Assembly: GCA_963813155.1 (NCBI GenBank)
Contig: CAWEYG010000003.1
Span: 896,001-960,000, forward strand
Length of the DNA: 64,000 nucleotides
From: an uncultured Acidobacteriota bacterium
GTDB lineage: Bacteria; Acidobacteriota; Thermoanaerobaculia; UBA5066; DATFVB01
Direction: 5' to 3'
The notes below the pieces were generated by a model. That model worked only from the letters and a program-made list of their open reading frames with translations, was not told the DNA's origin and searched no databases. Position numbers and translations under genes: made by a program. Shown here in pieces: positions 44,142-47,938 of the stretch (positions are counted from its first letter, which is position 1; each line of letters opens with the position of its first letter).

Positions 44142-44846
44142 CTAGAACCCGGTTCCCGCGTTCCAGGGCCAGACGAACGACCAGCCGGGGCCGCGAAAGA
44201 AAGTCCCGATGGCCGTGAGGATCGTGGCGATCATCACGAACCAGGTCATGATCCATTCGGGCAGCGTCACGCCCGAGAGAACGCGCCGGAGGCGGCCCCC
44301 CTGCTCCCCTCCGCGCGCGGCGAACATCGCGGCCGCGACGAGAACCGTGGGCACCACGACCGGCCAGCAACCTGAGGCTCCGAAGGCCACGACAAGTGCT
44401 CCGGTGGCGGCGACCAGCGCGATCGCCTGCTTCCTGCCTTTTCCAGCCCAGAGCGGGCCCGCCGTCAGGTTGATCCGGGCATAGGGAATGACGACGAGGG
44501 AGATCACGACGAGAGCCGGCAGCAGAACGCCGGCGACGATCGGCGGAAAATAGTGGAGAAGCTCCTGAAGTCCGAGAAAGTACCAGGGGGCCTTCGCGGG
44601 ATTCGGCGTCTCGAGCGGATTGGCGATTCCTTCCAGCGGCGCGTCGAACGCGAATGCCGCGACTGCTAGCGCGATTACCACGACCTGGAACAGGATGATC
44701 TCGCGAAGGATCAGGTGGGGAAAGGTCATCACGTATCGCTCGTCGTCCCGGCGGACGGCCGGCCGCATCTGCGGGTTCAGGAGCGCGACCCGGATCGGAA
44801 CGGCGAGCGGGTCGTTGGATTCGACGAGGTCGATCTCGCGGCTCAT
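44142..44846 (-). CDS. Cytochrome b C-terminal part (subunit IV / PetD-like)
   Basis: [38 protein letters not shown]. Confidence 0.88.
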
Positions 44847-45628
44847 GGAAGATCCTCCTCTCGTAGCTCATCTTCCGGCGGGCCGCCGTCTTCTTCGGGG
44901 GGACCCTGCACCCCGCCGTCCTTGCGGACTCGCCAAACGTGAACCGAGACGAACAGGAGCAGCGCAACCGGAAGCACGACGCAGTGGAGGACGTAGAAGC
45001 GGAGCAGGGCGTTTTCCGACACGACGTTTCCGCCCAGCAGCAGGAAGCGAACCTTGTCGCCGATGAAAGGCGCCTGTTTCGCCATGTTCGTCCCGACCGA
45101 GACGCCCCAGAAGGCGAGCTGGTCCCACGGCAGGAGATAGCCCGTGTACGAGAGAAGAAGAGTCAGGATCAGGAGGACGACGCCGATGACCCAGTTGAAT
45201 TGGCGCGGCGGCCGATAGGCCCGGTGGTAGAAGACGCGGAGCATGTGGAGAATCGCCGCGAAGACCATCGCGTGCGCGGCCCATCGGTGGAGGTTTCTCA
45301 GGAAGAGCCCGTTGTCCACGACGTAGTGGAGCTCTTTCATGTCCTTGTAGGCCTGGGGAACGGAGGGATGATAGTAGAACATCAGCAGGACGCCCGTCGC
45401 GACGAGAATGGCCGAGCAGGCGAGCGCGATTCCCCCGAGCCAGTAGGTGTGCCGGAAGAGGAGGGTCTTTTCGCGGACCTTGACCGGATGAACGTGGAGA
45501 AACAGGTTCCCGAAGATGATGAGCGATCGGTTCAGGTTCGTGTCGGCTACGCCGTGCCGCACGATCGAGCGATAGACCGAAGTCTCGCGAATTCTGCGCC
45601 AGAGCATTTCCATCGTCGATTCCTTCAT
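44843..45628 (-). CDS. Cytochrome b6-like N-terminal subunit
   Basis: [43 protein letters not shown]. Confidence 0.92.
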
Positions 45629-46080
45629 GCTTTGAACAGCTTTCCGTGCGGAATCACGATGCTCGTGTCGACCAGGAGATTCCCCGCCGCGTCGGAAGTC
45701 ACCTCGAGCCAGGGAAGCGGACGGGGAGCGGGGCCGTGGGAGACGTTGCCCTCCAGATCGAAGCGGCTCCCGTGGCAGGGGCAGGCGATCGCTCCCTCGT
45801 CGGAAACGAATCGCGTAATGCAGCCGAGATGCGTGCAAACGGCGGAAAGGGCGTAGATCCCGCCCGGCCCCCCAATGACGTAGGCCTTCTGCTCCTTGTT
45901 GAAACGGACCGTGCCTTCCGGATAGTCGCCCGAGCCTCCCGCGCGAAACGTGGTCGGCGGTTCGAACAGGACCTTCGGCTTGAGGTAGTCGAGCGTCACC
46001 ACGCCGGAACCGAGCGCAGCCGCCGCGCAAGCGCCGACTCCGATGCGAGCGAGAAAGTCCCGCCGGCTCGACTCGTCCAT
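45625..46080 (-). CDS. Rieske [2Fe-2S] protein with Tat signal
   Basis: [27 protein letters not shown]. Confidence 0.95.
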
Positions 46081-46108
46081 CTCGCGCAGATTCGGATCTC
46101 TCGCGCCG

Positions 46109-47938
46109 TCAGGCAACAGCGTCCCCCTTCCTCCCAAAACTCTGCATCGTGATCGTTCCGGCCGGACACCGGGCGGCGCACAGGCCGCAGCGAATGCAGA
46201 CGGTCTCGTCCTTCAGAAAAATCGCCCCCTCGCGCCGGCCCTCGATGACGATCGGCGCGATTTCGCGCGCGGCCGGCGACCCTCGCCGGATTAAGGCCTG
46301 CGGAAGGATCTCGATGCAGTTCTCCGGGCAGATGTCCTGGCATCCGCCGCAGAGGATGCATTCCGTTCCCTGGGAGGCGCTCTCTTCGAAGATCGTGTTC
46401 GTCCAGCAATGGAGGCAGCGGGAGCCCTCGAGCCGAGCCTGCTTCTCGGAAAAGCACTCCTCGACCTCCGCGATTCCGATCCGGCGGGCGATCGGCCGGG
46501 TCGGAGGCTTCTGGCGCGGGAGGCCCTCGAAATCCAGAGGTTTGGCATAGCGGCCATGGACGTCGATCTCGACCTCGATCTCGGGCTCGTTGCGCGGACG
46601 GCCGCGCAGGAATTCGTCGATCGACCGCGCCGCCTTCTTTCCGTCCGCGATCGCGTTGATCGCGATCCGGGGACCGAACGCCGCGTCGCCGCCGGTGTAC
46701 ACGCCCGGCGCCGTCGTCGCGAGCGTGTCGGGGTTCATCGTGATCCGGCCCCCTTTGATCGCAATACCGTCTTCCGGGCGGAGAAACGAGAAGTCACCCG
46801 TCTGGCCGATCGCCATGATCGCGGTATCGGCCTCCAAAACGGTTTCCGAACCCTCCAGAAATTGAGGTGAAAAACGGCCAGACTCGTCGAAAACCCGCGA
46901 GACCTTCCGGAATTCGATTCCCGTCAGGCCGGACGGTCCGCCGAGAAAACGGCTGGGCCCGAGCCGATGTCGGAAACGAATCCCCTCCGAGGAAGCCTCT
47001 TCGATCTCGTCGCCGGCGGCGGGCATCTCCGCCTCGGATTCGAGGCAGCAGACCGTCACCTCGCGGGCGCCGAACCGGACGGCGCTCCTGGCGACGTCGA
47101 GCGCCTGCACGATCGACAGATTGCGCTCCGTGTTGACCTGCTCCCCGGCCCGGGCCGCCGTGCGGGCGACGTCGAGGGCGACGTTGCCGCCGCCGATCAC
47201 GACGACGCGCCGGCCCATTTCGAGCTTGTAGCCGAGGTTGATGTTCAAGAGATAGTCGATCCCCCGGAGCACGCCGTCGAGTTCGACGCCCGGGATCGTC
47301 AGGTCCCGGCTCCGCATCGCCCCCACGCCGAGAAAGACGGACCGAAATCCCTGCGCCTGCAGGTCCGAGATCGTGAAGTCGGTCCCCAGTCTGGTGTTGG
47401 TCTTCAGCTCGACGCCCAGGGAAAGGATCGCGTTGATCTCGAGCTGGATGATCGCCCGCGGCAAGCGATACTCGGGCACGCCGAGGCGGAGCATGCCCCC
47501 GGCCACGGGAGCTCCTTCGAAGATCGTCACCGGATACCCCATGATCGCCAGGTCATGCGCGCACGCGAGGCCCGCCGGGCCCGATCCGATCACCGCGACT
47601 TTCTCCGCATAGCGGTCACGTCGGGCTCCGAAGATCTCCGTCAGTACCGAAAAGTCCATCATGCTTTCGACACCGAACTTTTCCGTGACGAAGCGCTTGA
47701 GGGCGCGGATCGAGATCGGAGCGTCGAGCTCCCCCCTTCGGCAGACGCTCTCGCAGGGCGCCGCGCAGATCCTTCCGCAGATCGAGGCGAGCGGGTTGGG
47801 CTTTCGAGCCACCGCGTAGGCTTCCCGGAACTTCCCCTGCGCGATCAGGGCCACATACTTCCCCGCTTCGGTGTGGACCGGGCAGGCCCACTTGCAGGGA
47901 AAGTTCCGTTCCAGCCATTCGACGTTGACGCCGGTCAC
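46109..47938 (-). CDS. NAD(P)/FAD-dependent FeS oxidoreductase (GltD/NfnB-like) with C-terminal 2[4Fe-4S] domain
   Basis: PCKWACP, CGRICAAPCESVC, GSGPAG, GVPEYRLP, GGGNVALD, GGD, RCLHC, CILCGGCQDICP, CIRCGLCAARCP; probable GTG start at 47938. Confidence 0.9.
   Translation of the reverse strand: MTGVNVEWLERNFPCKWACPVHTEAGKYVALIAQGKFREAYAVARKPNPLASICGRICAAPCESVCRRGELDAPISIRALKRFVTEKFGVESMMDFSVLTEIFGARRDRYAEKVAVIGSGPAGLACAHDLAIMGYPVTIFEGAPVAGGMLRLGVPEYRLPRAIIQLEINAILSLGVELKTNTRLGTDFTISDLQAQGFRSVFLGVGAMRSRDLTIPGVELDGVLRGIDYLLNINLGYKLEMGRRVVVIGGGNVALDVARTAARAGEQVNTERNLSIVQALDVARSAVRFGAREVTVCCLESEAEMPAAGDEIEEASSEGIRFRHRLGPSRFLGGPSGLTGIEFRKVSRVFDESGRFSPQFLEGSETVLEADTAIMAIGQTGDFSFLRPEDGIAIKGGRITMNPDTLATTAPGVYTGGDAAFGPRIAINAIADGKKAARSIDEFLRGRPRNEPEIEVEIDVHGRYAKPLDFEGLPRQKPPTRPIARRIGIAEVEECFSEKQARLEGSRCLHCWTNTIFEESASQGTECILCGGCQDICPENCIEILPQALIRRGSPAAREIAPIVIEGRREGAIFLKDETVCIRCGLCAARCPAGTITMQSFGRKGDAVA

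Follow-up and report, generated by a model that had tools for sequence, protein, structure and literature searches.

Can a Rieske/cytochrome b complex pass its low-potential electron to NAD(P)+ (the oxidized form of nicotinamide adenine dinucleotide or of its phosphate) instead of to a quinone? The question has been open since the idea was proposed for anammox bacteria in 2013, and it is raised again by a stretch of 64,000 nucleotides (nt) from an uncultured Acidobacteriota bacterium (contig CAWEYG010000003.1 of assembly GCA_963813155.1), here called the window. Four minus-strand genes in the window encode a split b6/subunit IV Rieske/cytochrome b complex of the group that carries the motif APWY at the quinol-oxidizing (Qo) site, together with a flavoprotein encoded directly upstream. 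We know of no pure cultures of anammox organisms, nor of genetics in them. This four-part design recurs widely in Acidobacteriota and Desulfobacterota, and the hypothesis can be tested in ordinary cultures because three cultured Geothrix species were found to have no other cytochrome b-type complex. We report here on the identities of the proteins, their cofactor-binding residues, the tight coupling of the genes, their order across phyla, and the kinship of the Rieske protein with two Rieske proteins of Kuenenia.

A flavoprotein gene accompanies the Rieske and cytochrome b genes

The four genes form the core (44142-47938) of an operon of eight closely packed minus-strand genes (41683-49877). 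The GltD/NfnB-like flavoprotein gene (46109-47938, minus strand; 609 amino acids [aa]; Pfam and Protein Data Bank [PDB] matches) starts with GTG, and its TGA stop codon ends at 46109. After a gap of 28 nt, the Rieske [2Fe-2S] protein gene (45625-46080, minus strand; Pfam Rieske) begins with the ATG at 46080. ATGA overlaps then join the Rieske gene to that of a four-helix cytochrome b6-type subunit (44843-45628, minus strand; 261 aa; Pfam Cytochrome_B), and the latter to the gene of a subunit IV-like membrane protein (44142-44846, minus strand; 234 aa; Pfam Cytochrom_B_C). The original prediction, made from the letters of this DNA, had placed the oxidoreductase in one operon with the Rieske and cytochrome b genes, 28 nt from the Rieske start, and had credited it with an extra 2[4Fe-4S] domain. 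The spacing was exactly as described, a C-terminal Fer4_7 domain with invariant motifs was recovered, and the linkage proved tight and universal across the relatives that we gathered.

These relatives comprised 67 loci, obtained by searching with the flavoprotein (45 to 86% identity). The nearest were from Thermoanaerobaculia, Holophagae, and other Acidobacteriota; the set includes Geothrix and Thermoanaerobaculia and, at its 45 to 58% identity end, Terriglobales, Binatia, Thermodesulfobacteriota, and a Bacteroidetes metagenome-assembled genome (MAG). The Rieske match started at most 400 nt from the flavoprotein match in 60 of the 67 loci. Three others had a flavoprotein open reading frame (ORF) broken in the assembly, with the Rieske gene at its usual place, and in the last four the contig ended 1 to 196 nt past the flavoprotein. 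The Rieske, b6, subunit IV, and multihaem cytochrome genes were all present in order in 56 loci, and the 11 others were cut by contig ends. Within the reach of each contig, none of the 67 loci gave a counterexample to the order flavoprotein-Rieske-b6-subunit IV-octahaem cytochrome, and we conclude from this that the arrangement is more than chance. The b6 and subunit IV genes of Terriglobales and Binatia are fused into one long cytochrome b in which APWY is retained.

Because this set was ascertained through the flavoprotein, we ran the reverse test, with b6 as the query on 301 Desulfobacterota genomes (E ≤ 1e-30). A match was obtained in 105 genomes, and an adjacent homologous flavoprotein (37 to 46% identity) was found in 17 of the 60 loci fetched. 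The operon's cytochrome b was the only PF00033 match per genome in Geothrix terrae, G. campi, and G. oryzisoli; since there is no other match, the complex in these three species must serve as a functioning quinol:cytochrome c link.

The cytochrome b subunits carry APWY and lack the haem cn cysteine

Spinach b6 was the best solved match of the cytochrome b subunit (4.7e-42). The four haem-ligand histidines (His114, His128, His215, and His230) align with those of spinach b6 and were invariant in all 25 sequences aligned, and the n-side motif WRxRKDGG was likewise invariant. The original prediction had read APWY for the canonical PEWY in subunit IV and YWLGG, without the haem cysteine, in b6, and both readings held up. 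HMMER alignment to solved mitochondrial cytochrome b set ...PAKAPWYFL against ...HIKPEWYFL, and APWY was present in 55/55 subunit IV sequences (the window and 54 loci). YWLGG aligned with YCLGG of spinach b6, so that Trp63 occupies the position of Cys35, the haem cn cysteine. Among 64 cytochrome b sequences, which include two second cytochrome b genes from loci L019 and L023, this column held Trp in 58, Tyr in 5, Gly in 1, and Cys in none. The window complex is thus predicted to be unable to bind haem cn. Subunit IV has four to five hydrophobic segments in its 234 aa by a Kyte-Doolittle scan, compared with three helices in canonical subunit IV.

The b6 protein also has a conserved cytoplasmic N-terminal extension of 60 residues that solved b6 proteins lack, with His45 invariant in 25/25. 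In AlphaFold3 models of the Kuenenia complexes, an extra b haem lies between the monomers near the first iron-sulfur (Fe-S) cluster, liganded by His43 or His62 of each monomer (Hauser et al. 2025, PMC12954380). We considered the extension as a flavoprotein-specific dock, or His45 as a haem ligand specific to flavoprotein-linked complexes. This candidate was rejected: the histidine is present in 17/17 Desulfobacterota loci with the flavoprotein and also in 38/43 without it, and the remaining five alignments fall short of the site.

The absent haem cn site bears on a rival explanation, in which the complex is an ordinary Q-cycle menaquinol:cytochrome c enzyme with a working quinone-reducing (Qi) site, and the flavoprotein brings in additional electrons, as an NAD(P)H dehydrogenase that is held at the membrane by cytochrome b and delivers them to quinone at Qi. 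The invariant n-side motif WRxRKDGG is consistent with such an enzyme, as is the situation in Geothrix, where the only Rieske/cytochrome b complex must sustain normal respiration. A "membrane-anchored dehydrogenase" state is moreover pictured as ancestral by Dibrova et al. (PMC5600118). However, the site at which b6-type complexes reduce quinone, that of haem cn, is missing, and the explanation accounts neither for the strict linkage to the Rieske gene nor for the APWY site. Unpumped electron transfer from NADH to menaquinone would also waste energy in a cell that has complex I, an objection raised as well by Hauser et al. (2025, PMC12954380). We regard this explanation as quite improbable.

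The Rieske protein is of the Ser-Phe type

The Rieske protein contains the cluster boxes CTHLGC and CPCHGSRF (Pfam Rieske, E 7e-12), of which CTHLGC and CPCHGS were kept in 62/62 Rieske sequences. The serine was present in every one of these, and the next-but-one residue, at the tyrosine position, was Phe in 55 and Tyr in 7. The N terminus matched a Tat (twin-arginine translocation) signal in NCBIfam and contains the protein's single hydrophobic segment (residues 10 to 28), which would serve as a signal or membrane anchor. Of 79 PDB matches, the top two were both Kuenenia proteins, Kuste4569 (9rk4, 3.6e-21) and Kustd1480 (9rk3, 2.7e-17); the latter, with GSGF, shares the Ser-Phe pair with the window protein.

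The motif GSRF, lacking tyrosine, was therefore correctly read by the original prediction. The consequence drawn from it, a low potential as in menaquinol-type complexes, is contradicted by published values. Ser-Phe Rieske proteins are graded "Mid+" (~260 mV) by Kao and Hunte (2014, PMC4122944), and the measured potentials are +303 mV for Kuste4569 (Ser-Tyr) and +335 mV for Kustd1480 (Ser-Phe) (Hauser et al. 2025, PMC12954380). With potentials this high, NAD+ reduction from menaquinol becomes feasible, as the authors of these measurements argue. The argument from a low Rieske potential would fail in any case, because the NAD-reduction scheme needs a high one.

The flavoprotein probably uses NAD(H)

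The cytoplasmic flavoprotein comprises an N-terminal 2x[4Fe-4S] domain (Pfam Fer4_20), Rossmann domains for flavin adenine dinucleotide (FAD) and NAD(P) (Pyr_redox_2), and a C-terminal 2x[4Fe-4S] ferredoxin domain (Fer4_7, residues 527 to 594). Both CxxCxxCxxxCP motifs were invariant in 25/25 sequences, as were 16 cysteines (residues 15, 19, 54, 58, 62, 66, 508, 511, 527, 530, 533, 537, 581, 584, 587, and 591), which are predicted to form two N-terminal and two C-terminal [4Fe-4S] sites and a CxxC pair. The YRR that follows the second Rossmann strand in NADPH-type relatives is replaced by LES ("CLES") in the window protein and by LE(S/D/P) in 24/25 sequences. By the usual Rossmann rule, such a replacement points to NAD(H), and this one motif makes NAD(H) a more probable nucleotide than NADP(H). 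The haem cn cysteine of the CxGG motif is kept in 4 of the 17 flavoprotein-linked Desulfobacterota loci, 3 of which have YRR; of the 13 without it, 12 have LE(S/T/N), and one is misaligned. A family-wide insertion in the NAD(P) domain (window 47190-47060; residues ~250 to 292) repeats its own motif (VALDVARTAARAG ... QALDVARSAVRFG). It is absent from GltD/NfnB relatives and made HMMER split the PDB alignment in two.

The flavoprotein was the only copy found in its own genome (tblastn, 1e-4). Its PDB matches were led by 9bov (1.3e-97), NfnA 9n5u (2e-92), and NfnI 5jca_L (1.1e-74) and included GltD 7mfm (3.6e-50). The protein scored below every NCBIfam cutoff (best, NF009410, 438.6 versus 516; TIGR01317, 210 versus 447.7), and neither in the operon nor adjacent to the flavoprotein gene was there a GltB- or NfnA-like partner gene. 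On these grounds, we rejected identification as a glutamate synthase or formate dehydrogenase beta subunit. Most members of the family are named "formate dehydrogenase (NADP+) beta subunit" or [quoted passage not shown] and neither name suits the gene context.

Such matches raise the question of whether the flavoprotein is a subunit at all or a soluble NAD(P)H:ferredoxin-type enzyme, resembling NfnB/SfrB, whose gene is simply cotranscribed with those of the respiratory complex. Its closest solved relatives are modules of soluble bifurcating enzymes (9n5u NfnA, 5jca NfnI, and 8oh5), a hydropathy scan found no hydrophobic segment in it, and no fusion with a membrane subunit was found. None of the 120 longer proteins listed in the fusion search carried PF00033 or PF00355, so that no fused flavoprotein-cytochrome b or flavoprotein-Rieske protein came to light among them, which is weak evidence. 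One candidate, P0029 (773 aa), joins the flavoprotein to a Rieske domain, but an Arg/Ser-rich stretch replaces the normal C terminus, and it was set aside as a likely MAG frameshift artifact. Against a soluble enzyme stand the position between porin and Rieske or between Rieske and cytochrome b, which is kept at 37 to 86% identity over several phyla, and the absence of an NfnA- or GltB-like partner encoded alongside. In addition, the Kuenenia complexes with such a subunit comigrate whole (de Almeida et al. 2016, as related in PMC5600118 and PMC12954380). A free-standing enzyme is, in our judgment, very unlikely. A complex prediction with two b6 copies and flavoprotein residues 448 to 609, run without controls, scored 0.02 against a mark of 0.32 and counts neither as support for binding nor as evidence against it.

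A copper protein, a putative haem-porin, and two cytochromes c complete the operon

Downstream of subunit IV, after a gap of 9 nt from its stop codon, is the GTG start of an octahaem cytochrome c gene (42129-44132, minus strand). Its product has eight CxxCH motifs, an N-terminal hydrophobic anchor, and matches to Pfam cytochrome c families, and it is predicted to be a membrane-anchored periplasmic protein in the place of cytochrome f/c1. The TGA of this gene overlaps, again as ATGA, the ATG at 42132 of the operon's last gene, which encodes a monohaem cytochrome c (41683-42132, minus strand) with one CxxCH, a Pfam Cytochrome_CBB3 domain, and a weak NCBIfam match to cytochrome 579 (30.6 bits); this cytochrome is probably a lipoprotein.

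The operon begins with a blue copper protein (cupredoxin) gene (49302-49877, minus strand). Its likely start is the ATG at 49877 behind GGAG; the ORF as listed begins with TTG at 49886. A cupredoxin domain is followed by a CarboxypepD_reg-like beta-sandwich (Pfam Copper-bind and CarboxypepD_reg; weak NCBIfam amicyanin match), and the type-1 copper ligand set His90, Cys127, His130, and Met133 was invariant in 55/55. Two cupredoxin paralogues in the same genome (29 to 36% identity; C1:633939-634391 and C3:58612-59019) adjoin haem-copper oxidase genes (C1:631617-633038 and C3:61461-62550, the latter match being split across two frames), which fits a role as electron donor toward oxidases.

Between the copper protein gene (gap of 2 nt) and the flavoprotein gene (gap of 11 nt) lies the gene of a 449-aa putative haem-porin (47950-49299, minus strand). 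The protein has a signal-like N terminus (hydrophobic segment at residues 7 to 25), a single CxxCH (CNGCH, residues 39 to 43), and the C terminus ...ARFVF. Pfam, NCBIfam, and PDB sequence searches with it gave no match. An AlphaFold2 model, of moderate confidence (predicted local distance difference test, 63.2; predicted template modelling score, 0.68), had exactly 16 strands, and its Foldseek matches included the porins OprO (4rjx) and OprP (2o4v) at template modelling scores of ~0.5. The nearest Pfam-bearing cluster in the Atlas carries Porin_O_P. An N-terminal signal, a single CxxCH, and a 16-strand barrel are the features that define Cyc2, Cyt572, and Cyc2PV-1 in a 2026 review (PMC13741234), with OprO as the template. 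The window protein has the signal-like N terminus, the single N-terminal CxxCH, the predicted 16-strand barrel, and the OprO/OprP-type fold of these fused cytochrome-porins, and it may be called Cyc2-like by feature and modelled fold, not by sequence match to a named Cyc2; the assignment is partly supported. A gene of this type occupied the same position in every locus with sufficient upstream DNA. It came in two subtypes, with motifs AVPSFARQTGLxCxxCHTTPPELN (window) and AVPAFSRKYQTSCQTCHxxFPKLN (Geothrix), that share ~21 to 25% identity; the rest of the operon is 60 to 87% identical across both (loci L001 to L067, ~5900-7400).

An operon that starts with a type-1 copper protein and a Cyc2-like haem-porin invites a confurcation model. 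A periplasmic high-potential donor (for example, Fe(II) via the haem-porin, the copper protein, and c cytochromes) would enter at the Rieske protein, NADH would enter via FAD, the Fe-S clusters, and haems bH and bL, and menaquinone would be reduced at Qo with help from the membrane potential. Cultured Geothrix, however, are known as Fe(III) reducers and not as Fe(II) oxidizers, which counts against this model. NADH would be spent on quinol, which by our own bookkeeping should be costlier than an ordinary reverse Q cycle, and the assignment of the porin to the Cyc2 family has only partial support. Several published observations agree with the model. The same kinds of parts make up the Cyc2-rusticyanin-cytochrome c-bc1 "uphill" route of Acidithiobacillus (PMC13741234). 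In the work of Li et al. (2023), the bc complex of Leptospirillum stands beside homologues from Brocadiales, Desulfobacterota, and Nitrospinales, and its Cyc572 beside acidobacterial ones. Reverse operation was suggested by Kao and Hunte (2014, PMC4122944) for the APWY clade. On balance, we consider confurcation unlikely.

Neighbouring genes and other cytochrome b loci

The operon is immediately preceded, on its own strand, by a PAS-LuxR regulator gene (49960-50805, minus strand), and 8 kb away there is another (57829-58503, plus strand). Between the two are universal stress protein, CBS-pair, and BON-domain genes (51125-52126, plus strand; 53616-54560, minus strand; 54660-55493, minus strand). 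Such neighbours suggest that the operon is controlled by redox state or stress. Elsewhere in the window, a 1,225-aa ORF (1309-4986, plus strand) has a partial Pyr_redox_2 as its sole Pfam match.

The host genome (3.81 Mb in 23 contigs, 90.8% complete) contains three haem-copper oxidase loci and complex I; cytochrome bd was not found in it. It also contains two further cytochrome b loci. One holds a long cytochrome b that has PDWY, and tblastn showed a cytochrome c-like stretch downstream of it. The other is a paralogous operon (C5:239059-246639), in which the gene of a 150-aa polyferredoxin lies upstream; it further encodes a HEAT-repeat-like protein, a Rieske protein of the Ser-Tyr type, a split b6 that keeps the CxGG cysteine (WCAGG) together with LHLHPVK, an 889-aa cytochrome c with eight haems, and a cupredoxin-like protein. 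The frame of its subunit IV appears to shift just before the APWY region, either through an assembly error or in a broken gene. In one Desulfobacterota locus (L077:1562-11787), genes for a Tat-exported molybdopterin oxidoreductase, its Fe-S subunit, and its chaperone precede an APWY-type Rieske/cytochrome b operon, and a 109-aa ferredoxin-like ORF lies between the Rieske and cytochrome b genes, where the flavoprotein sits elsewhere. The polyferredoxin and this ORF would speak for a rule that every such cytochrome b has a cytoplasmic Fe-S partner. A motif scan found none in many other loci, and we dropped the rule as unsupported.

A proposed route from menaquinol to NAD+

We favor a quinol-bifurcating mechanism in which NAD+ takes the low-potential electron in place of a quinone at Qi, and put its chance of being right at about even. 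This preference has three grounds: the linkage is strict, the Rieske type suits the scheme, and the b6-type site of quinone reduction is missing. Menaquinol would be oxidized at the APWY Qo site, and its first electron would move downhill to the mid- or high-potential Ser-Phe Rieske cluster. The next carriers would be the two cytochromes c (octahaem and monohaem) and the blue copper protein, from which the electron would reach a haem-copper oxidase or the outer-membrane haem-porin. The second electron would cross the membrane via haems bL and bH, without a haem cn, and continue via four Fe-S clusters to FAD, where NAD+ would be reduced. The resulting NADH could, speculatively, re-enter the chain through complex I and so raise the proton yield per electron. 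Exit of the low-potential branch to NAD(P), as the original prediction had it, is a reasonable reading. Kartal et al. (2013), as summarized by Hauser et al. (2025, PMC12954380), put forward the same exit for the anammox complexes, in which NAD(P)+ would be reduced by the low-potential electron.

A number of considerations weigh against bifurcation to NAD+. Complexes of the bc1 type reduce quinone without haem cn, so its loss is no proof that quinone reduction at Qi has been lost. Contact of the flavoprotein with the membrane subunits is predicted from gene order, no fusion with cytochrome b or Rieske turned up among the 120 listed proteins, and the choice of NADH over NADPH depends on a single motif. 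His45, which by position matches the haem-ligand histidine of the Kuenenia AlphaFold3 models, appears not to be specific to flavoprotein-linked complexes. It is not obvious why a heterotroph that has complex I should make NADH from quinol. Finally, the Cyc2-like porin hints at inward flow of electrons derived from Fe(II), for which a forward-running complex would be unnatural.

A wider and more doubtful possibility, which we offer tentatively, is that all eight genes encode one trans-envelope machine, in which the haem-porin and copper protein would link an external or periplasmic high-potential partner to a quinol-bifurcating complex that reduces NAD+ directly and has neither a Qi site nor haem cn. 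If so, with complex I present, half of the quinol electrons would be recycled via NADH, protons per electron delivered to the acceptor would be about doubled, the operon would be the sole complex III in Geothrix, and the anammox NAD(P)H hypothesis of 2013 would apply to menaquinol respiration in general and in many bacteria. Were bifurcation to NAD+ to prove true, the reckoning of energy yields would change for many menaquinone-using bacteria of soils and sediments, and redox chemistry with metals at the cell surface would be tied to the cytoplasmic NAD pool.

Comparison with known systems

The five sequence traits that first drew attention to this locus are normal marks of a published group, not peculiarities of the window genome, and both the observation and the NAD(P)-exit idea are already in print for relatives. 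Kao and Hunte (2014, PMC4122944) describe an "APWY clade" of cytochromes b from several phyla, with no characterized member and with Rieske partners that range from Ser-Phe (Mid+) to high potential. The window cytochrome b is assigned to this clade by its Qo motif and the type of its Rieske partner, both of which agree, and not by a tree; Acidobacteria are not among the phyla given for the clade in the portions of that paper available to us. In the corresponding subfamily G of Dibrova et al. (2017, PMC5600118), as far as that account goes, the same features recur as in the window and its relatives: APWY with a Ser-Phe or Ser-Tyr Rieske protein, split or fused cytochrome b in one group, and co-occurring large NAD(P)-binding Fe-S proteins like the window flavoprotein. 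Those authors regard four-helix cytochromes b as anchors for cytoplasmic oxidoreductases and, in their updated tree, report gene proximity "in many other cases."

The nearest described systems are the Kuenenia complexes Kuste4569-4573(4) and Kustd1480-1485, which carry such a flavoprotein subunit (Hauser et al. 2025, PMC12954380) and were found to be expressed with all subunits comigrating (de Almeida et al. 2016, cited in PMC5600118 and PMC12954380). Their Rieske proteins are the best PDB matches of ours, a kinship compared for the Rieske subunit alone. As in the window operon, a split b6-type cytochrome b is combined with a multihaem cytochrome c (six or eight haems) that replaces cytochrome f, and the same operon includes the gene of an NAD(P) flavoprotein with four Fe-S clusters. 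Subunit IV is enlarged to five helices in Kuenenia; four to five segments were counted by hydropathy here. Unlike the window b6, with its Trp63, the Kuenenia models keep haem cn (PMC12954380). The NADH-type LES pocket is a further trait of the window protein, a contrast drawn with NADPH-type relatives having YRR and not with Kuenenia's own sequences. Kuenenia has an HAO-like octahaem partner, which the window operon lacks, whereas the window operon adds the blue copper protein and the Cyc2-like porin, and its host is an acidobacterium of heterotrophic type with oxidases and complex I.

ExtP and ExtQ of Geobacter (NF040969 and NF040970; extHIJKLMNOPQS cluster, ExtOPQ(S); PMC5877670) were the best NCBIfam matches of b6 and subunit IV, but the window proteins score below both equivalog cutoffs (263.1 versus 290 and 54.5 versus 150). 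No flavoprotein is described for the ext cluster (Jahan et al. 2018, PMC5877670), and its porin ExtI is haem free, whereas the window porin has a CxxCH and is matched by no NCBIfam model. Cytochrome b6f (PetB/PetD/PetC/PetA) has the same four histidine ligands and the same split into b6 and subunit IV. The window complex differs from it in lacking the haem cn cysteine, in having APWY for PEWY and an octahaem cytochrome c for cytochrome f, and in its 60-residue b6 extension, extra subunit IV helices, and added flavoprotein. NfnB and GltD small subunits align over their full length with the Fer4_20, FAD, and NAD(P) domains of the window flavoprotein. The latter adds the C-terminal dicluster ferredoxin domain and an insertion of ~26 residues repeating an ALDVAR motif, has LES for YRR, and lacks a GltB/NfnA partner gene.

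In the literature searched, we found no description of such a complex in Acidobacteria or Geothrix, although Fig. S1 of Dibrova et al. and the tables of Kao and Hunte may list acidobacterial members. To these known systems, the present analysis adds (i) a gene order without counterexample in 67 loci; (ii) adjacency of the flavoprotein in 17 of 60 Desulfobacterota loci; (iii) a variant predicted to lack haem cn and to be of NADH type; (iv) the finding of this cytochrome b as the only one in three Geothrix species; and (v) an eight-gene operon in which the complex is joined by a copper protein and a putative haem-porin.

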